DNA from: Rhizodiscina lignyota
Taxonomy: Eukaryota
DNA: 64,000 bases
Reading direction: 5' to 3'
Assembly (NCBI GenBank): GCA_010015805.1
Contig: ML978122.1
Coordinates: forward strand, 778,453-842,452
Both the position numbers and the translations under genes were made by a program. Under the pieces are notes generated by a model that was not told where the DNA came from, did not search any database, and saw only the letters and a program-made list of their open reading frames with translations. Shown one piece after another: positions 33,308 through 54,192 of this stretch (the stretch's first letter is position 1; every line of letters begins with the position of its first letter).

Positions 33308-36300
33308 ATGGAAGGCGCGTTCACTCACCTCGGAAATCATCTGGTTTCCGACTCTGCCTCGACGATCAACGCCGGCGATGACGAGAGCATCCTCGATGGG
33401 CAGTTCGGCGGCGGCCTGACCTCAGGCGCGAGGCGCCGACGACACGACGACGATGACGAGACCGATGTGTTCGACGATGATGATATGGAGAGTATGGCTA
33501 GCATGGCCATAGAGGGCGCGAATGGCAAGGCACCTGCCAAGGTCGAGGAGGAAGTCGAGCTTCCGCCGCACGCCTGCGCGTGAGTCTCACATTTTGGGCC
33601 ACCGAGACTGCGACTGGCTCTATATTATAATTATTTATTTGCTAACAAGAAGAGGGGTGTAGGTATTGTGGCATCCATAATACGAGCAGCGTGGTCAAGT
33701 GCTTGACCTGCAACAAGTGGTTCTGCAGCGCTCGTGGCAATACTTCGTCTTCGCACATCATCAATCACCTCGTTCGAGCTCGCCACAAGGAAGTCCAGCT
33801 TCACCCTTCATCCTCCCTTGGCGATACTGTCCTGGAATGCTACAACTGTGGCACTAAGAATGTCTTCCTCCTTGGATTTATTCCTGCCAAGTCGGACACG
33901 GTGGTCGTGCTCCTCTGCCGCCAGCCTTGCGCTGCGATGCCTTCTTCTAAAGATATGAACTGGGATACGTCGCGCTGGCAACCTCTGATCGAGGATCGCT
34001 CATTCCTGCCGTGGCTCGTCTCCGCTCCCACAGAGCAGGAGCAAATGCGCGCTCGCCACCTTAGCCCACAGATGATTGTGAAGCTGGAGGAGATGTGGAA
34101 GGAAAATGCGACAGCCACAGTGGCGGACTTGGAGAAGGGTGCTGCGGTTGATGATGAACCTGCGCCAGTCCTTTTGCGCTACGATGATGCTTACCAGTAT
34201 CAAAATGTCTTTGGGCCTTTGGTCAAGATTGAGGCAGACTACGACCGGAAGCTGAAGGAATCGCAGTCCCAGGACGGCCTCATTGTCCGATGGGACTTTG
34301 GTTTGAACAACAAGCATCTGGCTAGTTTCGTTCTTCCCAAACTGGAGCTTGGTGACGTGAAGCTTGCAGTTGGTGATGAGATGCGCCTCCGCTACACTGG
34401 AGAGCTTCGGCCTCATTGGGAGGGTGTCGGCTATGTCATCAAGATTCCGAACAACCAGTCTGATGAAGTCACGATCGAACTGCGAGCCAAAGGCGATCAC
34501 AAGTCTGTGCCGACGGAGTGCACGCACAACTTCACTGCGGATTATGTCTGGAAAGCGACTTCCTTTGACCGCATGCAACACGCGATGAAAACTTTTGCGA
34601 TTGATGAGATGAGCGTCTCAGGTTACATCTTCCACCGTTTGCTCGGACATGAAGTCGCAGCCGCGCCGATGAAGACTCAAATGCCACGCAAGTTTAGCGT
34701 TCCGGGCCTGCCGGAACTTAACGCTAGTCAGATTAACGCTGTCAAGAGCGTACTGCAGAAGCCTCTCAGTCTCATTCAAGGACCTCCGGGTACTGGAAAG
34801 ACGGTCACATCTGCTACTATCATCTACCATCTAGCCAAGCTGAACGGAGGCCAAGTGCTCGTCTGCGCTCCGTCGAACGTTGCTGTCGACCAGCTCTGCG
34901 AGCGTGTCCATCGCACTGGATTGAAGGTCGTTCGCGTCACCGCAAAGTCTCGCGAGGATGTAGAGTCTCCAGTTGCCTTCCTCTCTCTCCACGAGCAGGT
35001 TCGCATGAATGATACGAACATCGAGCTTAACAAGCTCAACCAGCTCAAGAACGAGCTTGGCGAACTGTCAAGCCAAGACGAGAAGAAGTATAAGCAGCTT
35101 ACCCGAGCAGCTGAGCGCGAAATTCTGACGAATGCCGATGTCATATGCTGCACTTGCGTTGGTGCAGGCGATCCACGTCTCTCCAAGTTCAAGTTCCGAA
35201 CTGTGTTGATCGACGAGTCGACCCAGTCTGCCGAACCGGAGTGCATGATTCCGCTCGTTCTTGGATGCAAGCAGGTTGTCCTGGTCGGTGATCACCAGCA
35301 GCTTGGCCCCGTCATCATGAACAAGAAGGCGGCGAAGGCAGGCCTCAATCAGTCACTGTTTGAGCGCTTGGTCATTCTTGGATGTGCTCCTATCCGTCTT
35401 CAGGTCCAATACCGCATGCACCCTTGTCTCTCGGAATTTCCTTCCAATATGTTCTACGAGGGCTCCCTCCAGAATGGTGTCACGATTGCCGCGCGTCTGC
35501 GCAAGGATGTCGACTTCCCCTGGCCAGTCACCGAAGCTCCGATGATGTTCTGGTCCAACCTTGGCAATGAAGAAATTTCGGCTTCCGGTACTTCCTACCT
35601 TAACCGCACTGAGGCGTCTAACGTCGAGAAGATTGTCACTCGCTTCTTCAAGGCTGGCGTGCAGCCTCAGGATATTGGCATCATTACGCCGTATGAAGGC
35701 CAGCGCAGCTACGTCGTGAGCTCCATGCAAGCGAATGGCACCTTCAAGAAGGAGAACTACAAGGAGATCGAGGTCGCCTCTGTGGACGCCTTCCAGGGTC
35801 GTGAGAAGGACTTCATTGTGCTCTCTTGCGTGCGTTCCAACGACCACCAAGGCATCGGTTTCTTGAGCGATCCACGTCGTCTCAACGTGGCGCTCACTCG
35901 TGCCAAGTTTGGTCTCGTAATCCTCGGCAATCCCAAGGTCCTTTCGAAGCATCCGTTGTGGCATTATCTTCTCCTTCACTTTAAGGAGCGCAACTGCTTG
36001 GTCGAGGGCCCACTCTCGAATCTGCAAACTTCTCTCCTGCAGTTCTCTCGCCCAAAGCAATCGTACCGCGGCCCACAACGCTACCAGATGGCTTACCAGC
36101 ATGCCAACAACATGGCTGCTGGTGCACGTGCAGGTATGAACGGCACCCGCCGCAACGACTACTCCAGCGAGGCCGCTTCCGTCGTTGGCTACATCCCAGA
36201 TGACGTTTCTTCCGTGCACTCCTCTGCTATCGGAGGTGTCGGCGTCAACGCGTCCAACTACCCGCCAATGTTCTCAGGCTTTGCAGAGAACTGGCCATCA

Positions 36301-36681
36301 CTTCCTGGATCTGGTGGACGCGGTCCAGTCGGTGCCGGCAAGGGCAAAGCCAACGGCGTGGCGAGCAGCGTCGCGGGCGAGAGTATCGCAGCGAGCGAGC
36401 TGACCGACATGACCACCAGCGCAGTCGATGGAAAGCCCAACGGTGTCGGACAAGGCGGCGTCAGCCTCGCTGGCCTGAGCCTGAACGATCTCAACAAGCC
36501 GCAAAGCCTCAGCCAGAGCGACCGTCTGAAGCGCTTCCTCGATGCCAATGGTCGCCCGATGGACCCGAATGCGCCCAGGGGCTTGGGACGAGGCGCTGGG
36601 TTCGTCGGTGGTGATGACGACGATGCCAGAAGCATTAGTACGGCGTTCGCAAGCCAGATTGGATTGGGTGGATACGATTGA
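33308..36681 (+). CDS. UPF1: Upf1/Nam7 nonsense-mediated decay helicase
   Basis: CH zinc domain [57 protein letters not shown]; one intron at about 33580-33663. Confidence 0.98.
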
Positions 36682-37984: not shown

Positions 37985-39437
37985 ATGCGTACCAGCGTCT
38001 CCCTCCTCTCTGCGTTCGTGTGCTTCGAGACTGTCCGCGCGTTGCTGCTTTATGGCGCGGTCCAGTCCGGCCTCAAGATTTCTCCGACTGCTGTGACGTT
38101 CTGGTAACGTGCCTTCCACGATCCGTATAGCAACGACCATTCGCACTGACAATCTCCAGGGCCGAGTTCCTCAAGCTCTCCGTATCAACGCTGTTCCTGT
38201 GCCGCCAGATTCGAAAGGACGGCCGGAGCCTGACTTTCAAGGCGTTCTTTGAAGCCGCGCAGCTCGCGGACGCGGAGAATCCCAATGCATCAGCGTTCAA
38301 GCTCTACGCGTCTTATGCCCTACCAGCGGCGCTTTACTTTATCAACAACATTTTGTATCTCACAGGACTGCAAGTGACGAGCCCGTCGCTCCTGCATGTC
38401 ACCATCCTGGCAAAGCTCCCGCTAACCGCCATTCTGCACCACTACCTCATCAGGTCGCAGAAAAATGGCAAAGCTTGGATATCGCTGGGCGTTCTGTGTG
38501 TTGGATTACTGATTTTCCAAATCCCGCAATCTGTTAAGAACTGGATGTGGAGTTTCATCACAGCGGTGGGCGTAGTTTCCACCGACAAACCCAGAGAGAA
38601 TGGCCCTTCCAACGAAGTCCTGGGGCTGCTGATTGGCTCCACGATTGCAGTGATCTCGGCCTTCACGAGCACTTATACCGAAACCATTCTCAAACGCTCG
38701 ACAAATTTTTGGACCGCACAGGTTTGGCTATATCTGTACGGCTCCTTGTTCGCTTTCATCTCCGCGTTCTTCTGGGACGGCCGCGTCAAGCATGATAAGG
38801 ATGGCAACGAGAACGCAAGCAAGATCGCTTCGGCATCCATCACAATGCTTGTCAGCGCTGTAGCCTCCATCGTCACTGCTGCGACTGGACTGGTGGTTGC
38901 CAACATCCTCAAGAAGAAGGATAATCTAGTACGACTTGTCGGCGTTGCGGCGGCGATTGTTTCTATCGCGCTGTGGCAGGGTCTCCTCTTTGCAGATCTG
39001 CGGTCGAAGACTATCAATGTCTTTACGGTTCTTGGACTTGGGACTATTTCCATTGCGACATGGACGTATAATTATTACAAGGATCAACAGCCGGGGAACG
39101 GGGCTGCTTACACGCCGGTGGAGAATGGAATCAACCTCGACGGAGATGAAGATGAAGATAACAAACCGGACGCTGGAAATGCTTCTGGGACCGCGGATCA
39201 GGACAAGACTCCGTCATATCTGGTACCTACGTGGCCGCGGCTGATTGGCGCTACTGTGGTTGTGCTTCTCCTTACTGCTTTATCGGCAATGTTTCAGCCT
39301 TGTAAGTGAGCGCCTTTTTGTTCTCCCTCGTGGCATTTATCCCGTTCTTCGGGGGAAGACAGAAGCCGGGGTGCTGTCTCAAACTATCAATGCGCGCAGG
39401 AGGCTAACAATTATGTTCAGCGAGCTCAGAGAAATGA
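37985..39437 (+). CDS. Nucleotide-sugar transporter (SLC35A/UDP-galactose transporter-like)
   Basis: Spliced start MRTSVSLLSAF..SPTAVTFW|AEFLKLSVS; YALPAALYFINNIL; KLPLTAIL; STYTETILK; QVWLYLYG; multiple hydrophobic helices. Confidence 0.8.
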
Positions 39438-40931: not shown

Positions 40932-41601
40932 TTAAGTAAAGTGTAAGGAGAACACACCCGAGCCAACAAGCTCACGCTTATCGGGATCTTCCCAGCCATC
41001 GTAGTCGCCATCCTGAATTTCCTCGAGCGAAGTTGCTCCCTTGATAGTTTCTGTATCAAAGGTAACGAGCTCACGCTTGTCAGGATCTTCCCAGCCATCG
41101 TAGTCGCCATCCTGAATCTCTTCAAGCGAGGTTGCTCCCTTGATAGCTTCAACATCAAAGCTCACAAGCTCACGCTTATCAGGATCTTCCCAGCCGTCAT
41201 AATCGCCGTCCTGGATTTCCTCGAGCGAAGTCGCTGCCTTGATGGTTTCGGTATCAAAGGTGACGAGCTCACGCTTGTCAGGATCCTCCCAACCGTCGTA
41301 ATCACCATCTTGAATTTCCTCAAGCGAAGTTGCTCCCTTGATAGTTTCAGTATCAAAAGTTACGAGCTCACGCTTATCAGGATCCTCCCAGCCGTCGTAG
41401 TCGCCATCCTGGATTTCCTCGAGTGAAGTTGCTCCCTTGATGGTTTCAGTGTCAAAGACTACGAGATCACGCTTCCCATCTGCCACACGTAAATCAGATA
41501 TATGCGATATAAGCTGCCCCGATAAATGAGATCTTACTTGCAAGCGGAGCCGCGATAATGGCAGTGATGCCAGCGAGAATGACAACAAGTGACGCCTTCA
41601 T
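40932..41601 (-). CDS. Kex2-processed repeat protein (KEP); candidate dikaritin RiPP precursor
   Basis: ATG 41601 gives signal peptide MKASLVVILAGITAIIAAPLA. Intron 41537-41480 (GTAAGA..GCAG) is followed by NGKR, five 33-aa repeats each ending KR, and tail ELVGSGVFSLHFT*. About 203 aa. Confidence 0.88.
40974..41468 (-). repeat. Coding tandem repeat, 5 x 99 nt
   Basis: Five units encoding (D/E)LVxFDxExIK(G/A)ATSLEEIQDGDYDGWEDPDKR; nucleotide differences between units are mostly synonymous. Confidence 0.97.
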
Positions 41602-41695
41602 TGTGGCTGGAGAGGATCAAGAGTAGCTCCGAGATGTGAAAAGCTGAGAAGTTGATAGGCGATGTGTTCATAGAAAGGAAGAAATGACTGTGGGC

Positions 41696-41783
41696 TTTAT
41701 ACCTCGAGGCAAAGAACTCACTCTGCTTCCAAAGGCATGAAAACACTCGCGGGAATGAACTCACTCTGCTTCCAAAGTCATGA
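41696..41783 (-). promoter_or_regulatory. Putative precursor promoter: TATAAA plus a 27-nt direct repeat
   Basis: TATAAA on the minus strand at 41696-41701, about 95 nt upstream of the ATG. GAACTCACTCTGCTTCCAAAG(G/T)CATGA occurs at 41714-41740 and 41757-41783 (26/27 identical). Confidence 0.5.
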
Positions 41784-42759
41784 TAGCTACTCAATTGAGG
41801 CATTGTTAATTTCGGCAAGTAAAAACTTACAATCTGCTTGTCTTAGTGCTTACTATGTTCCCATGAGAGTCTCAATATGTCCGTGACTACAAGTTCAAGG
41901 CAGTAATTGGAGAAGACGAAGCCGAGAGACTCTCGACAATACGGAACTGATGATGCCCTCGGTTGCAGACGCATGAGAGTATGCAGTCTGCCAGTCCTCT
42001 CCATTTCAGGAAAAAGGTTCAGAGCTTTACTTTTGAAACTCCTACCTCCAATTAGGTTATTAGATCTTGTCGATCAACGAAGTAACGGCTTGTGCGAGAG
42101 AGAAAAACCTCGAATCGGATGACGCCTATACAAACGTGACTGTCTATCACTGATCTATGCTAAAAGTTATCATTGGTTAGATTCCCTATGAACAAACCCG
42201 ATAAAGGGATTTTCCTGAAATGGGGAGGACTGCATAGTTGCATGCATCTGTAGAAATCATAAAATCCCAATGCATGTGAACAGTCTCCCTGCCTGACGGA
42301 CGATGTAGCTATGATCATATGATGCATGTATTGATCGTATTCGTCTTTGGTGTAGGTTTCGAGTTGTGCCATCTTCTCCAAAGCATCTTCTACTAACCCG
42401 CTTGTCCTTTGGATATTTTTCGGGTCCTTGAAACATTTTCGGGTCCAATTCAATCACCCTTCACGTCTTGAACAGGATATCGATCTGTTTGGTTACACGG
42501 CATGGGGTGAATGTCTCCCGAATCATGTTCCATATGCTGCATGTGCTGAAAGTTCTGAACATCTCCAGAATGCTGTGTTATCACGCTGCGTATAGTTGAG
42601 TAGAGTGTGATGATTGGGATACGATACCAATTTGGAATATACCTGGTCGGGACTGCCAGGGGTAACCGAACACATGTTCGAGGAGCATATGAAGTAAAAG
42701 GCCATCGGCTGTCCTTCATCGCCAAAAAAAACATCCCACCTTGCTGTTTCAATTGCAGT

Positions 42760-43719
42760 ATGGCGAAGAACTATTCTGATGTCCTTTTCAATTCAAGCGA
42801 AGACGAAAAGCCACTCCTTGAGGAGGAACAAGTCATCAAGAGATATACGTCGAGAGCGACATCATGGAATTGTTTATTGGCAGCAGCGTGCGGATATATG
42901 CTTGGTGTCGGAAGTAGTTTGCTGTTCAAGGAACGATTCATCTGCACAGATCCATCTCTTGCATTGTGGTGTAAGTGTTGACGGTGCTCGGTGCAGCTTG
43001 GTTATCTAACATAATATGAAAGCTCCTGCAAATGGAGCCGTGAAATGGAAAACCGTCACGTCAGATCGATATTTCTTCACCCGCAGCCCATATATGGGTA
43101 CGGATATTGAGCGGCTTGATGCGATGTGGGCGGACCTGTACGATTGTGAGTTGCCTGTTTGAGAATTTGGTTGGCAACAGTTGGCTCACTGACTGTAGAT
43201 GGAACTTCGGCCATCTCTCCCGCAGAGAATTCAAAGCTCTTGAATTCAACACTTCCATCACCAAAGGACAATAATACATACGTTGTGGAACTACAGGTGT
43301 TTCACGATCTTCATTGTTTGAATATGATTCGTAAGACGGCGTACCCTGACCAGTACCCTGAAATGTGGGAGTACTATGAGAACGGCACTGTGAACCACAA
43401 CTCTCTGCCGTCGTTCCATCTGGGTAAGTTGTGTCGATGACTCGCAGTGCAAAGGATTTGCTGATGAAACGCAGATCATTGCATTGATAGTCTTCGTCAA
43501 GGGCTCATGTGTACGGCGGACGTCACGCCGGTCGTCTTTCATCACAATGCTGATGACCCGTACCATATATTCCCACAGATTTGGTCGACGCGGACCTGCC
43601 GGGATTTCGATAGGATCAAGGAGTGGGCCATTGATAGGCAGATTGAAAGGTGGAAGCTCGATTTGGATGTGAATACTAAGATCGTACCTGCGGAAGATCT
43701 CAGTGAAACGTTTGGATAG
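42760..43719 (+). CDS. DUF3328/UstYa-family oxidase (dikaritin cyclase-type)
   Basis: Introns 42971-43022, 43146-43198 and 43424-43474 give an N-terminal TM anchor, WSPANGAV, SPYMG..DAMWADL, LQVFHDLHCLNMIRK, FHLDHCIDSLRQGLMCTADVTP and RTCRDFDRIKEWA. Two HxxHC motifs are present. Confidence 0.93.
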
Positions 43720-44424: not shown

Positions 44425-45257
44425 TCAAGATATTGACAATCGTTCCAAATCTATGGCGGAGAAGGACCAAAAGTCGCTCGACTTGGCGATGAGGTCGGCC
44501 ACTCTCTCTAGGCCATGTTGATCATCTTCATCAAAGCCATTCAATTCGGCGCAATCAATGTCAATGATAGCTTTGATCTGCGATGCGGTTAGCATATTGA
44601 CTGGGCATGAGGTGCTCGGGGGAGCGCCAGACCTTCCCATCCTGCACTATCGGCACAACAATCTCGCTCTTGCTCGCCGAATCACATGCGATATGTCCAG
44701 GGAACTTCTCAACGTCCTCAACAAGTTGTGTCTTTAAGCTTGCAGCTGCGGCTCCGCAGACACCCTTGCCGAACGCGATAGTCTGGCATGCGACATGGCC
44801 CTGGAACGGGCCTAATATCAACTGCTTCGCGTTTTTGGGGTCGACGACGTAGAAGCCACACCAATTAACTGCGGACGACGGCGGAGGAAGGGAGAGCAGG
44901 CCATGATTCAGGAGTGCGGACGCGTTCGAGAGATTACTGGCTTACAGGCGTTAGAGATCGATGGGCTGATACTTTTTTCGGATGAATGGATCGCGGAGTA
45001 GTTCCGTTGACATGCGAAGGATCGTGGCTCACCAAACCTTGAGGGATTGCCGTTAGCTTCAAAAAGTACGAGGAAGATAGGGGCTGTCTCACCCAGTTTC
45101 TTTGGTCTTCGAAGAGAGCTTCTGCTTGCTCTATGACTTGATCGTACACTTCCTTTTTGGACAGTCCGGAGCGGAAAGTGGAGGACTCAGCGTGTACCTG
45201 CATGCGTCAGGGTCCATTGCCGATCAATCATCCAGAGGAGAGGGGCAGAAATACCAT
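44425..45257 (-). CDS. GAF-domain free methionine-R-sulfoxide reductase (fRMsr, YKL069W-like)
   Basis: M|VHAESS..QRNW|VC|NLSNAS..NWCGFY..LGPFQGHVAC..GKGVCG..FPGHIACDSASKSEIVVP..IIDIDC. Confidence 0.93.
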
Positions 45258-45614: not shown

Positions 45615-46807
<1,193 letters not shown>

Positions 46808-47405
46808 GGTGGAAGACTTTCGTACGATGTTAAGTTGGCTTGATAATCGGGCTATCGCACTTCGTGCAAACATAAAGCTTGGAGCGGAGGAAGAAGAGCA
46901 ACTGGGAGTTATGTCATCAAATCCTTGATCTACCGTGGCCGCAGAGATACGCTTCACAGAAGTTATGATCTAGCTTTGAAAGGCACGGCCTATGATTCGC
47001 GATACACGAGCGCTTAAATATCTCCAGCCGGATCGTGTCTCTCCGCAATTTGACCTTCGCGAATCTTACATGGAGATAGCCATGTTTATCACCGTGTCTT
47101 TCACTTTGGATAATTTGACGCTGAAACTTGTATCCAGGGACCGAGATCGGTGTAACATAAGCGCTCTCCTTACTCCAAGAGACCGGCTGGTGCATTTAAC
47201 ACCCTTTTATATCGCGCTAGGCTCCATTGAAACAGTGGGTATCGCTGACCTCGCCCGATGACCCTTGCTACGTGATAGCTGCGGCTGCATGCCAAGATCC
47301 TTTAACCACTACTTCGGCCAGGAGTCTGCAAAGGAACGTCACGCTCAAAATCCTCTCAGGCGACCAATCTCTCGACTGCGAGCCACCTCCCGCGACGCAT
47401 AGTAT

Positions 47406-49142
47406 ATGAATGGGGACGCAAAACCGAACGGAACTGTTCCTTCGAAAGCGAAAATACACGATTCGCCCTCCTTCGAACAGCCCAGCTCCCCCGATCACTC
47501 GTTCCTAACCCTTTCTCAGCCCCGGCCGAAAAAGAAATCTCCGGAGGAGATAGTCCAGAACTTTGGCAGAGACAGATTTCCGTCAACACGGCTTCATAAT
47601 CAAGAAGAACTCGTCGACCCATCTGGGTTTGACGACTGGGACGAAGAGGAGGAAGAGCCCCGTCAATCTGAAGACGACGGATATACAGACATGCCTTCAG
47701 ATCTGAGGCCGCCGCTCCATCGACACCACGATGGGCGGTCACAGCAGCCGCTGTTAACTGGCAAGCCTCCAGCCTACGATGATCGCGACGATCTGCCTGC
47801 CGTCAGTCCTCGGAGGTCGACGTTTCACGAGCGAGACCCAGACGTGCTCGCAGCCAGGGCCACGAGACAACGATACATATACGCGTCGTTCTTCTTGGTA
47901 TTGAGCTTGGTCAGTTTCGTGGTGCAGACGGAGACGGCTGTATACATTGCCAATGAGCTGAAATGGAGGAAATCGTACTGCATGTTGTATGTATCTCTTG
48001 ATAAGCATGGTCTTAGCAGGGGCAGTCACTGACAACGGCCTCGCCGTTAGATACTTTACGCACGGTTCCTGGTCCCTCCTTTGGTTAGTGCAATTAGCGA
48101 TCCTGCGCATACAAAAGTGGCACCTGCCCTGGGAACCTTTCTGGAAACGACATGTACAGATCCTCACGCAGACGGCGCAAATGGTGGAACATCAGACACT
48201 GCACCTCAATGGCTTTCAACAGAAAAAGTCACCGGTGCCATACATGATACGGACGACGGCTTTCGTTACATGCTGTCTCACCTTAGCTGGCGGCAGCTGG
48301 TATGTGGCTGTGAACCTCACAACCGCCAGCGATCTGACCGCCATTTACAACTGCTCCGCCTTCTTTGCATACGTCTTCAGCGTACCTCTGCTGAAAGAGA
48401 GGGTGCGAATGTCAAAAGTTGCTGCTGTAGCTGTCGCCATCATAGGCGTCATTATCGTCGCTTATGGACCAGGAGTTGCACCCAAACACGGCAGCAAATC
48501 TGGCGGAGGAGCTGGCGGTCCGAAACATCCGACCAACGAGCCGGCTGCTAGAGGCTTTGGTAATCTCGTGATAGCGATAGGCAGTATGCTCTACGGCTTC
48601 TATGAGGTGTTGTACAAGAAGGTTGCTTGTCCACCAGATGGATGCAGCCCCGGTCGAGGTATGATTTTTGCGAACACGTTCGGTAGCTTGATCGGACTTT
48701 TCACTCTTACCGTCTTGTGGATCCCTCTTCCCATTCTACATATTACAGGCATTGAGACCTTTGAACTTCCACGGGGCGAGGCGGCGTGGATGCTTTTGAT
48801 AAGCGTCCTTTCCAACGCAAGTAAGTAGAACAACATCCCGTGATATGAGTAATCGCTGACAATACTGTAGCCTTTTCTGGTTCGTTCCTCGTTTTAATCA
48901 GTCTCACTTCTCCTGTACTGTCCTCAGTTGCCGCACTGTTGACAATTTTCATTGTTGCCATTGTCGATGAGCTACTCCCGGAGCCAATGAAGAACAAGCT
49001 CACTCCATCGGCAATTATCGGCGGCTTGCTGATAATCGGAGCGTTCCTTGTTCTAAGCTGGGCAACTTATCGCGAAATGGATGAAGAGAGACGAAAGAAG
49101 CTCGAGGAGGAGAGTGAAGACGAGAGTGTTTTAGGAGACTAG
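47406..49142 (+). CDS. EamA/DMT-superfamily (SLC35F-like) membrane transporter
   Basis: FVVQTETA; WYVAVNLTTASDLTAIYNCSAFFAYVFSV; LYGFYEVLYKK; LISLTSPVLSSVAALLTIF; about 10 TM helices. Confidence 0.85.
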
Positions 49143-51024: not shown

Positions 51025-54000
51025 ATGCCAGGCATACTGCCTATGAAAGTAATCAAAGTCGGCTCTTCGGCCCAGTCACGCATCGCACAAGCCTGGTGAG
51101 TTCGCCATAACCTATACAGATGTTCAGGACTAATCACTCGCACAGTGACCGCTGTAGGTCAAAGAAAATTCGATGTGACGGGGTACGACCGTAAGTAACG
51201 AGTCCATTTGATGCTCGCGACTCCTTCACTCACTTTTCATACAGGAGTTGCACGCAATGTGTCAATGTGGGCTTCGAGTGCAAGACGAGCGACAAGCTCA
51301 GTCGCCGTGCCTTTCCACGCGGATATACTGAGTCGTTGGAAGAGCGCGTCCGCGCTCTAGAGGCAGAAGTGCGAGAGTTGAAGGACTTGCTGGACGAGAA
51401 GGACGAGAAGATCGACATGCTATCGAGAATACACTCCCACTCCCCACAGTCGATGCAAACCTCGCCGCGACCATCCGTAGCAGCCACAGGCTCCGAGTCT
51501 CCCGCTGAGGCCGACAAAGACAATGTCTTCAAAGTTACACAATCTCCCATTCTTTTCGACAATGAGGGCTCAGACGGTTACTTTGTGGGGACTTCAAGTG
51601 GCAGAGCTCTTGTCGGTAGGTTCCCCGCATACCCCTCGTCCCCTTACACGTCAACTGACCGTCACAGACGCATTCAAGAACAAGGTTCAAGAAACAGGCA
51701 AGAGCTTGGTCGAGATTCGCGCCGACGCCTTCTTCAAAGCGGAATCGAAGCAGACAGGGTCGGCACCGAACAAGGCAACGATATGGAGAGCGCCTCCTCG
51801 TCTGCTGTCAGACCAGCTCATCAATATCTTCTTTCAGGAATGGGCGCCGATCTTTCCAGTATTGCATCGCCCCACCTTCCTGCACCTATACGAAGACTAT
51901 ACTGCTGCACCAGAGTCTGTGACGGACAAGAAGTCGCTGGCGCAGCTTCATCTCGTCTTTGGTATTGCTGCTCTCTCAAACCAAGTATGTTGCCACCAAT
52001 CGCTCTTTGAAGACATGATTCTAACATGCATCCAGACCCACAACGTCGAAGAGTTAGCCTCGATTGAACGACAATGGCGCGCCGCGCTCGACTCTTTCTT
52101 AATGACCGACTCCCTCGTGACACTGCAATGCTTGACGTTGGCGATCATCTACTGCCTTCAGTCGGCTGATCATTCTGGACTTTTGAAGTTCAAGTGCCTT
52201 GCTGTCAGCTTGTCGCAGCGTCTGGGCTTGCATCAATCGCAGAAGCGATTTGCACTTGGCACACTGACGAGTGAGACGAGGAAGAAGGTCTTCTGGACTC
52301 TCTACACGCTCGACTGGTAAGACTTCCAAGTCTCTTGATCGTTATTCACCAGCTAATGGTTGCAGCTTCTCCGCCGCCCAGATTGGCCTGCCGAAGCTCA
52401 TGAGAGAGGATGACGTCCATTGCGAGTATCCTGTTGATGCTGATGACGAGTATGTGACGGAGAAGGGCTTCTTACCCACCCTTCCTGGCGAATCAACGAA
52501 ACTCTCCAGTGCCCTTGCCCTCTTCCGCGCCACGCCAGTCCTGGCGAAGGTGCTCAAGGAGCTCTACCCCGCTTCGCCAACCCACGATATCTCGTTCAAG
52601 ACGTTGACCTCCTTGGCGGATGAACTCGATGCATGGCTGGACAATCTGCCCGCCCACCTTAAACTGCAGTTCGTTCAAGACAAGCCAAGCACTCATGTCG
52701 TCAATAGCCGTTCGCCTCTATTGGTAAGTTGCCTCTATTGACGCGACGCGTGACCATCCAGCTGACCATTATCATCCAGTCTCTTGCCTACCACTATATC
52801 CGCTCCCTCATCCATAGGCCTGCTGTCTGTGCCAGCTCCCTGCTTGGCGACCGAGCATCATCATCGATTGTCGCCATCGCCAGCTCCGCCAAATGTATCA
52901 TCCAGATCATCCAGCTGCTCGAGGAGCGCAGTCTTGGCTTCTCCTTCTGCCTGAACAAAAACGAGCTTCTCATCGTCTCTGGCTTCAGCCTACTCTTCCA
53001 AAGCCTTGACCTCGACCGCGATGGCAAGCTCATGAGAGACCACCAGCGGACGCTCAAGGCCATTGTAGAGATACTCGAGCAAAGGAAGGCTCCCGGTGCC
53101 CGCCACTTCCGCAAGGTCGCCGGTTCAATTCTTTCGGCCCTGTCTCAGGCACCTATTCTGTCCCGACAGAACTCCGACAAGACTGGCATGACCACCCAGG
53201 ATGCCCTCCGATCGACGCAGAAGCACCTCAAGGCAATTGCGGCACGTTTGTCGCCTGACAAGCAACGCCGCCGCGAATCAGACAATATATCCCTGAACGA
53301 CGATGGCCGACGCGCAACTGCACCGGCAATAGGCTCACACCCCAATAATTCACAAAACAGTCTCTCGTCAATCCACTCAGAACCCGCTACCCTCCTTGCA
53401 GCAAGCCATCGTCCCTCCCCCACAACTTCAAACCCAGCCGTGTCTCCGTCCTTCCAACAACTTCGCCAGTCCCCACCGAACCAGCCTTTGAAACGCTCCA
53501 GCACATCCGCAGCACCACGTCCCCCGAACCTCGACTATCTCTCCTTCACGGCTTCCTCTCCCGCAGGCACCATTTCCCCGCGCAGCAGCACGAAGGCCAC
53601 GCCCGCTGACATCCTCCGCGCATACCACGCGTACCAGTCCGCCCCACCCGCCACCAGCAAGCCGCAACTAGACGTCTCCAGCACCGCAGACTGGGAGAAA
53701 CTCATCAGCTCCCTCGACCAGACCGACTCGAACATATACGACTCCATCTACGGCGGGCCCGGCGGCGTCGACCTTTCCAACCACCTCGCTTCCCCTCACT
53801 CCACCAACAGCATGCCCTTATCCGCAAGCGCGATCGAGGCGCAGAACTTGGTCTGGGATGCGCAGAGCTCCGCTTCCACCAACCCCACCAGCAACGGGAG
53901 TATGGACGCACCGAATTTCGGCTGGCGCCCGGGATTCGCGGGTCTCACACCCCTCGCCTTAGACGGCTATCCTATGATGAGTCCTGCGCCGGTGCCGCAG

Positions 54001-54192
54001 AGTGTGCTGAGTTTCTCGGATGAGAGTTTGAGTTCGGGAGAGGAGTTTAGCAGCGTGGGGATGAGCACGGGTGGGAGAAGTGGAAGCGCAGGACTGGGCG
54101 ACGAGGTGGATGTGTATGCGGATTTGGATATTGGGATGTTGAAGATTCCGGCGGATGATATGGGTGGGTTGGATGGGGGTTTTGGCCTGTGA
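51025..54192 (+). CDS. facB: Acetate-utilisation Zn2Cys6 transcription factor FacB/Acu-15 (Cat8/Sip4-related)
   Basis: [75 protein letters not shown]; fungal TF middle-homology region [31 protein letters not shown]. Confidence 0.92.

Follow-up and report, generated by a model that had tools for sequence, protein, structure and literature searches.

Within a 64,000-nt stretch of the Rhizodiscina lignyota genome (contig ML978122.1 of assembly GCA_010015805.1, forward-strand positions 778,453 to 842,452; hereafter the window, to whose first letter all positions refer), we analyzed a gene for a secreted-type repeat precursor and a gene for a DUF3328 protein of the UstYa type. The two genes are immediate neighbors and are divergently transcribed. 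Judging from the features described below, both are almost certainly real, and the pair probably represents a minimal ustiloxin-type (dikaritin-like) locus for a peptide that is synthesized ribosomally and modified post-translationally (RiPP), in which the UstYa protein would modify the adjacent precursor. We favor this interpretation because published statistics link DUF3328 genes with repeat precursors and because characterized clusters tie DUF3328 proteins to peptide cyclization.

The precursor gene runs from 41601 to 40932 on the minus strand, and the translation of its two exons is 203 amino acids long. Exon 1 (41538–41601) begins with an ATG at 41601–41599, which sits in the context CCACAATG, and encodes a signal-peptide-type N-terminus; its 64 nt supply 21 residues and 1 nt of the next codon, and a GTAAGA donor follows directly. 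In the 58-nt intron (41480–41537; GTAAGA...CAG), the branch site is CTGAT, 13 nt upstream of the acceptor. Exon 2 (40932–41479) encodes a pro-segment ending in KR, five 33-residue repeats, and a 13-residue tail, and closes with a TAA stop at 40934–40932. The repeats lie in a stop-to-stop frame of 221 codons that lacks any Met, so the intron is required to link them with the sole start codon.

The predicted protein starts with Met-Lys, after which 18 residues are hydrophobic; over 15-residue windows, Kyte-Doolittle hydropathy peaks at 2.62 (residues 3–17), and the signal peptide was judged from this profile. NGKR follows, then the five repeats, each closed by KR, and the tail, which places KR at six sites (residues 24, 57, 90, 123, 156, and 189). 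Tandem Repeats Finder described the array as having a period of 99 nt, 5.2 copies, 84% matches, and 0 indels. The initial annotation of this DNA had described a minus-strand precursor with a signal peptide, a pro-segment ending in GKR, and five 33-residue repeats closed by KR, and each of these elements was recovered in place. Kex2-processed repeat proteins (KEPs) have been defined by a signal peptide and at least three tandem repeats of 8–100 amino acids between dibasic Kex2 sites (Umemura 2020, PMC7329392), and the precursor shows all of these features.

The repeats lie in tandem on the minus strand, with repeat 1 at 41370–41468, repeat 2 at 41271–41369 (ELVTFDTETIKGATSLEEIQDGDYDGWEDPDKR), repeat 3 at 41172–41270, repeat 4 at 41073–41171, and repeat 5 at 40974–41072. 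Repeat 1 begins with DLVV, is otherwise like the other repeats, and ends in KR. Repeats 2 and 5 encode identical protein sequences with 12 synonymous differences between them, repeat 3 has Ala in place of Gly12, and repeat 4 carries Ser4, Val7, and Ala9. Variation is thus limited to positions 1, 4, 7, 9, and 12, all in the first third of the unit. Residues 13–33 are invariant in all five copies, with synonymous variation at 17 of those 21 codons. For the ten repeat pairs, Nei-Gojobori estimates ranged from 0.65 to 3.08 for synonymous divergence (dS), from 0 to 0.08 for nonsynonymous divergence (dN), and from 0 to 0.08 for their ratio (omega). Because synonymous sites have diverged heavily while the protein has stayed nearly constant, this pattern argues that the precursor gene is real and that the whole 33-residue unit is under purifying selection, tightest over the C-terminal two-thirds. 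That part holds the sole Tyr (position 24) and the sole Trp (position 27) of each repeat, both invariant in all five copies. The same pattern indicates that the copies are old and that their likeness does not come from recent homogenization of the DNA. Each unit is strongly acidic (11 Asp/Glu versus 3 Lys/Arg), and an invariant DGDYDGWEDPD segment stands just ahead of its KR.

The precursor gene appears to be unannotated, because its product was absent from every protein collection searched. Missing annotation, as judged by those searches, might suggest that the open reading frame (ORF) is not expressed and that a decaying or never-transcribed repeat array lies beside the UstYa gene by chance. 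An AlphaFold2 model of the precursor from the single sequence could be read in the same way: it had a mean predicted local distance difference test (pLDDT) value of 37.8 and no fold, and gave no support for a folded repeat domain. Low pLDDT is, however, expected of a disordered precursor, and annotation commonly misses small repeat precursors. A silent array would also have to account for an omega of 0–0.08 among ten pairs of repeats whose synonymous sites are close to saturated, and for 203 codons of unbroken reading frame with a signal peptide, a favorable start context, and a canonical intron. We therefore regard an unexpressed array as very improbable.

Domain searches gave little for the precursor itself. 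Pfam returned sub-threshold, repeat-driven matches only, plus RraB at 24.4 bits (cut-off 23.3) without a qualifying domain, and no EF-hand or TSP3 family was matched in the Pfam scan of the pair. A motif search of the precursor for the core sequences YAIG, YVIG, YVIP, FYYTGY, and GLKLAF found none of them, as the initial annotation had observed.

The UstYa gene (42760–43719, plus strand) has four exons and a 267-residue product. Exon 1 (42760–42970) encodes a cytosolic N-terminus and a single membrane helix at about residues 36–56, as judged from hydropathy and AlphaFold2. Exon 2 (43023–43145) matched PF11807 weakly (E = 0.035) and a profile of 18 homologs at E = 1.1e-11. The initial annotation had proposed a PF11807 search as a check, and exons 3 and 4 scored well above the gathering score of 25 bits. 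Exon 3 (43199–43423; E = 2.7e-12, 47.4 bits) encodes HDLHC at 43303–43317 and the start of HLDHC, two residues and 1 nt, at 43417–43423. Exon 4 (43475–43719; E = 1.2e-15, 58.5 bits) encodes the rest of HLDHC at 43475–43482, as well as Cys199 and Cys228, and ends in a TAG stop at 43717–43719. The introns measure 52, 53, and 51 nt and are all of the GT..AG type with CTRAY branch sites; together with that of the precursor, all four introns of the pair are canonical and have such branch sites. The four-exon gene with HDLHC and an intron-split HLDHC was thus as previously described, intron 3 falling in the codon of Asp187.

HDLHC corresponds to residues 147–151 of the protein and HLDHC to residues 185–189. 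H147, H150, C151, H185, H188, C189, C199, and C228, along with several Arg and Asp residues, are invariant in all 18 aligned homologs. The product is identical to P0001, deposited at NCBI as 'hypothetical protein NA57DRAFT_71651 [Rhizodiscina lignyota]', for which a PF11807 match is also precomputed. Hydropathy indicates one hydrophobic helix at residues 38–56 (Kyte-Doolittle 19-residue maximum of 1.80). AlphaFold2 with the homolog alignment placed a helix at 19–49, followed by a moderately confident lumenal domain (mean pLDDT of 68). A PDB sequence search with the UstYa profile returned 0 matches, and Foldseek of the model against PDB gave no match at E ≤ 1e-3. The best VIA-align match (Z of 4.3) covers the long helix only and was discarded as a structural analog. 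A predicted complex of the lumenal domain with one repeat scored 0.00; it was run without controls and speaks neither for nor against an interaction.

Close relatives of the UstYa protein were few: orthologs with 60–74% identity in Hyaloscypha variabilis (63% identity over 258 amino acids; PMD48120.1 and KAN0117818.1), Neoarthrinium moseri (60% over 186 amino acids; KAI1862903.1, KAI1866130.1, and KAI1846747.1), and Stipitochalara longipes (KAE9368132.1), plus a few environmental fragments. Beyond these, identity was at most 38%. All relatives are named hypothetical or DUF3328 proteins, and none is characterized. The S. longipes ortholog (P0032), otherwise very close, has YLDHC in place of HLDHC, the first His of the second HxxHC being replaced by Tyr; the change may be genuine variation, a mark of a copy that is inactive, or a mistake in the sequence. 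In an environmental gene call whose product is similar to the Hyaloscypha ortholog (P0006, from a 907-bp ENA contig), unrelated residues break the conserved blocks at the sites of the second and third introns of the Rhizodiscina gene. This gene call appears to read through introns, and the positions of the UstYa introns may thus be conserved across classes.

In predicted layout the UstYa protein resembles CctR, the cyclochlorotine hydroxylase and the biochemically characterized DUF3328 member. In CctR, a disordered N-terminal part in the cytosol is followed by a single membrane-spanning helix and a domain on the lumenal side; the protein is described as a disulfide-linked homodimer whose HxxHC(x)nHxxHC builds a binuclear copper site dependent on O2 and electrons (PMC12435403). 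The two proteins share the N-terminal disordered region, the single transmembrane helix, the lumenal domain, the HxxHC(x)nHxxHC arrangement, and further conserved Cys residues. Copper binding and dimerization were demonstrated biochemically for CctR and would hold for the Rhizodiscina protein by analogy. The two differ in that the substrate of CctR is a non-ribosomal peptide, whereas no non-ribosomal peptide synthetase was matched among the scanned ORFs of the window.

To survey the gene neighborhood, 149 six-frame ORFs of at least 104 amino acids, covering the whole 64 kb and excluding six ORFs inside the pair, were compared with Pfam at E ≤ 1e-4. No tyrosinase, methyltransferase, cytochrome P450, non-ribosomal peptide synthetase, polyketide synthase, kexin, or S41 peptidase was matched among these ORFs, in a scan of long ORFs that can miss short or highly spliced genes. 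The absence of a match to any other source of substrate (non-ribosomal peptide synthetase, polyketide synthase, tyrosinase, methyltransferase, or P450) favors the precursor as the partner of the UstYa protein. The UstYa gene is also the only one of its kind in the 64 kb, since the 18-homolog profile, run against six-frame ORFs of at least 25 amino acids, matched only the four exons of this gene. As far as is visible from the sequence, the locus would be a two-gene unit.

Published base rates for the linkage of KEPs with DUF3328 genes bear directly on this pairing. A survey of 7,878 KEPs reported 1,758 with a DUF3328 gene within 15 genes; conversely, 31.8% of 9,399 DUF3328 genes lay within 15 genes of a KEP, versus 0.7% for major facilitator superfamily (MFS) genes, and the count of DUF3328 genes near KEPs was highest at the adjacent position (PMC7329392). 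Tyr occurred in 65.6% of the DUF3328-linked KEP repeats, versus 38.2% of the unlinked ones (PMC7329392). Using the totals given in that survey (~6.4 DUF3328 genes and ~9,900 proteins per assembly), we estimate that a DUF3328 gene would directly adjoin any one KEP by chance with a probability of ~0.0013, or about once in 800. These base rates make it unlikely that the precursor and UstYa genes adjoin by chance.

The same rates weigh on a simpler explanation, according to which the precursor is an ordinary KEP that yields linear, unmodified acidic peptides of ~31 residues, or an intact acidic secreted protein, for example with a role in signaling, in metal binding, or as an effector, while the UstYa protein acts elsewhere. 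Purifying selection that covers all 33 residues and not just a short core would fit this explanation, as would annotated UstYa orthologs that are unaccompanied by a precursor homolog. We count for it as well that DGDYDGWEDPD resembles what we take to be a calcium-binding loop of the DxDxDG type. We know of no pheromone-like motif in the Rhizodiscina repeat. According to the survey, 78% of KEPs lack a DUF3328 partner, and many function as linear peptides (PMC7329392). Pheromone-type KEPs share with the precursor the published detection features but, as reported there, almost never adjoin DUF3328 genes (3 exceptions among 443; PMC7329392). An ordinary KEP would also leave unexplained an immediate, divergent DUF3328 neighbor, which by our estimate would arise by chance about 1 time in 1,000, and the UstYa protein would be left without an alternative substrate pathway visible among the scanned ORFs. 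This explanation, the main rival of a RiPP locus, is in our view rather unlikely.

Whether the pair is called a dikaritin locus depends on the definition used. The newer definition takes as the enzyme that defines the class a DUF3328 protein carrying two HxxHC motifs, encoded next to a repeat precursor (PMC12048977); the Rhizodiscina locus combines both, its DUF3328 gene encoding the two motifs. The original five-gene definition (Ding et al., as cited in PMC12048977) included a tyrosinase, a methyltransferase, multiple DUF3328 proteins, and a transporter or peptidase. The Rhizodiscina locus does not correspond to it, having one UstYa gene and, among the long ORFs scanned, no matched tyrosinase, methyltransferase, or S41 peptidase. 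Because all of the named sequence-level features are present, placement in the ustiloxin-type/dikaritin class appears reasonable.

In its make-up, the locus is nearest to the tyrosinase-free asperipin-2a and epichloecyclin clusters, which also establish that clusters with a single DUF3328 gene and no tyrosinase exist (PMC6514808, PMC10540207). The four-gene asperipin-2a cluster of Aspergillus flavus (aprA, aprY, aprT, and aprR) shares with it a precursor with a signal peptide and KR-delimited repeats, a single DUF3328 gene, the lack of a tyrosinase and methyltransferase, and a Tyr in the repeat (PMC6514808). Unlike the asperipin-2a precursor, that of Rhizodiscina lacks the FYYTGY core, and no MFS transporter or isoflavone-reductase homolog adjoins the pair; an aldo-keto reductase and an EamA-type transporter lie 2–5 kb off, and no feature connects them with it. 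We liken the UstYa enzyme to AprY by cluster make-up.

The epichloecyclin cluster is described as comprising the precursor gene gigA, the DUF3328 gene gigB, the SET methyltransferase gene gigC, and kexB (PMC10540207). Its repeats are also long, the 27-residue unit consisting of an 8–9-residue Tyr-containing core and a conserved follower, and one DUF3328 protein is needed for cyclization (PMC10540207), which is also the number at the Rhizodiscina locus. By contrast, no dedicated kexin or methyltransferase was matched among the scanned ORFs of the window, and the core sequences are unrelated. The Rhizodiscina repeat, of 33 residues, has a strongly acidic composition and carries its Tyr and Trp close to the C-terminal KR. 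Ustiloxin (ustA/ustYa/ustYb/ustQ) and phomopsin clusters share with the pair the precursor architecture and DUF3328 proteins with two HxxHC motifs. Acidic residues flanking the core before KR are a further common feature, UstA cores being flanked by ED and KR (PMC6514808). Those clusters are, however, reported to hold two to five DUF3328 genes with a tyrosinase, a methyltransferase, and more, whereas the Rhizodiscina locus has one DUF3328 gene and no matches to the others; their units are 13–14 residues long rather than 33, and their YxIx core is absent here.

Taken together, the sequence features suggest the following route. The precursor would enter the endoplasmic reticulum by way of its signal peptide, and a Kex2-type protease of the Golgi would cut after the six KR sites, freeing five near-identical, acidic 33-residue units. 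The DKR↓E sites presumably resemble those of yeast alpha-factor. The UstYa protein, a predicted type II membrane-anchored and lumen-facing enzyme, would then oxidize the peptide, as its family, its conserved His and Cys residues, and its adjacency to the precursor suggest; by analogy with CctR, it would be a dimeric, binuclear-copper, O2-dependent enzyme. The likeliest chemistry would be a side-chain cross-link starting at Tyr24 of the invariant DGDYDGWEDPD, in parallel with the Tyr-centered cross-links of ustiloxin, phomopsin, asperipin-2a, and epichloecyclin. Other peptidases would finally trim the flanks. The core is likely to lie around Tyr24 within this segment, because the chemistry of the known members is Tyr-centered and because of the conservation pattern of the repeat. 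That the modification is a Tyr-centered macrocycle we propose only tentatively, and we would put its chances at somewhat below even.

The enzyme family allows other outcomes. The locus could be a functional RiPP locus in which the UstYa protein hydroxylates, desaturates, or halogenates a side chain, with no cyclization. CctR hydroxylates its substrate, and DUF3328 proteins have been implicated in halogenation, isomerization, and other reactions (PMC12435403, PMC12048977). Yet each of the ustiloxin, phomopsin, asperipin-2a, and epichloecyclin systems has at least one DUF3328 protein tied to side-chain cyclization (PMC7329392, PMC6514808, PMC10540207), and the Rhizodiscina locus has a single DUF3328 enzyme. 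We consider a modification without cyclization unlikely.

Several observations weigh against the pair as a cyclic-peptide locus. Since DUF3328 enzymes hydroxylate, halogenate, and catalyze other reactions (PMC12435403), cyclization is not assured by the family. The repeat unit is conserved throughout, 33 residues long, and very acidic, as opposed to the 13–14-residue ustiloxin units, and would also fit a longer linear peptide. Units of such length do have a precedent in the 27-residue epichloecyclin repeat (PMC10540207). In addition, no homolog of the precursor was found in clustered proteins, in representative proteins, or in metagenome contigs of the Joint Genome Institute (JGI). The search of 5.8 billion clustered proteins of 99–317 amino acids gave 0 matches, the window's own product included, although that collection contains the neighboring UstYa protein. 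Among 1.84 billion representative proteins, with no limit on length, an exhaustive HMMER search gave seven weak matches at E ≤ 1e-3, all of which were ruled out as homologs: they are 490–1240 residues long, and their repeats are similar in period but unrelated, none of the units being bounded by KR. JGI metagenome contigs yielded 20 pattern matches, with two loci confirmed by tblastn. One of these, with QDGDYDGW, is a bacterial metallophosphoesterase-like ORF, and the other, with GWEDPDK, is an unrelated ORF; both were dismissed as chance motif matches. In the ESM Atlas, nothing scored high enough to count as a lead, 0.78 being the best value.

The annotated proteomes of Hyaloscypha, Stipitochalara, and Neoarthrinium likewise contain no recognizable counterpart of the precursor, although each carries a UstYa ortholog with 60–74% identity. 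Among the 19 KEPs listed for Hyaloscypha variabilis F in Table S2 of Umemura 2020, none is near PMD48120.1 by accession, the nearest being PMD48393.1. This is a weak check, as it presumes that accession order equals gene order and as the Rhizodiscina precursor is itself unannotated. The supplements of Umemura 2020, whose tables give accessions rather than sequences, contained no entry for Rhizodiscina, DYDGW, or GWEDP. We treat the missing homologs as weak negatives, because precursors of this class diverge fast, 2,560 of 7,878 KEPs having no homolog (PMC7329392), and because annotation missed the Rhizodiscina precursor itself. The repeat thus appears to be without a detectable relative, and such orphan status is common in this class. 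An unmatched core beside a UstYa gene is likewise the common case, since the 1,758 linked and the 2,560 homolog-free KEPs were already catalogued in 2020.

Public read data touched on the same locus. The one run listed for this DNA is of the DNA type, none being of RNA. Its contigs are 100% identical to the window over the 3-kb locus; this run may be the window's own sample and is hence not independent. Logan contigs of the run end at 41013 and 41088 within the array (40989–41117), and short bridging pieces there have higher word depth. Given these breaks inside the repeats, short-read assemblies may fragment precursor genes of the repeat-array type.

A more speculative product deserves mention, namely a strongly anionic peptide of ~20–31 residues that keeps DGDYDGWEDPD and in which Tyr24 is cross-linked to Trp27 or a neighbor within a DxDxDG-like metal-binding loop. 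We consider it a long shot. Selection on all 33 residues fits a long anionic cross-linked peptide without requiring one. If it were true, the Tyr-Trp link would be one that is unreported for the DUF3328 family in the literature we examined, and the product, which might bind metal, would define a class of fungal RiPPs new in both size and charge.

The intergenic region shared by the two genes spans 1158 nt (41602–42759), in agreement with the divergent spacer of that length in the initial annotation. It contains a 38-nt direct repeat (41703–41740 and 41746–41783) whose copies are 89% identical at a spacing of 43 nt, with an exact 21-nt core, GAACTCACTCTGCTTCCAAAG. The repeat stands 100–180 nt upstream of the precursor ATG and is unique in the window, with 0 chance matches expected; it may be a duplicated promoter element. 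Mid-region lies a hairpin-like inverted repeat with arms at 41966–42014 and 42210–42250, in which 23-nt segments are 96% and 83% complementary and ~195 nt apart. In size and shape it is like a miniature inverted-repeat transposable element. It is present as a single copy in the window, with 0 chance matches expected, and no clear target-site duplication was seen at 41966–42250.

The Pfam scan placed the pair among housekeeping genes. Upstream are UPF1 (33646–36678) and a nucleotide-sugar transporter (38131–39306), and downstream are a GAF-domain gene (44564–44941), the aldo-keto reductase (45618–46711, minus strand), the EamA-type transporter (47962–48825 or, in its longer extent, 47403–48825, plus strand), a fungal-specific transcription factor (51195–54189, plus strand), and KTI12. 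By analogy with AprR and AprT of the asperipin cluster, which likewise contains a reductase and a transporter, the reductase, the transporter, and the regulator, 2–8 kb downstream of the UstYa gene, might belong to the locus.

The precursor-UstYa pair is a new, unannotated example of a class that is already heavily catalogued, and it would not surprise a specialist, although it makes a clean and minimal candidate for experiments on DUF3328 enzymes. If functional, it would rank among the smallest test systems conceivable for DUF3328 chemistry, comprising two genes, a single enzyme, and one invariant residue each of Tyr and Trp. The family has only recently been shown to be copper-dependent (PMC12435403) and has no solved structure, and no sequence match was found in PDB. 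A functional pair would also contribute a peptide scaffold from a Dothideomycete that has been little studied; in other respects it joins well over a thousand clusters that are already predicted. That the deposited annotation missed the precursor implies that catalogues built from annotated proteins undercount this class.

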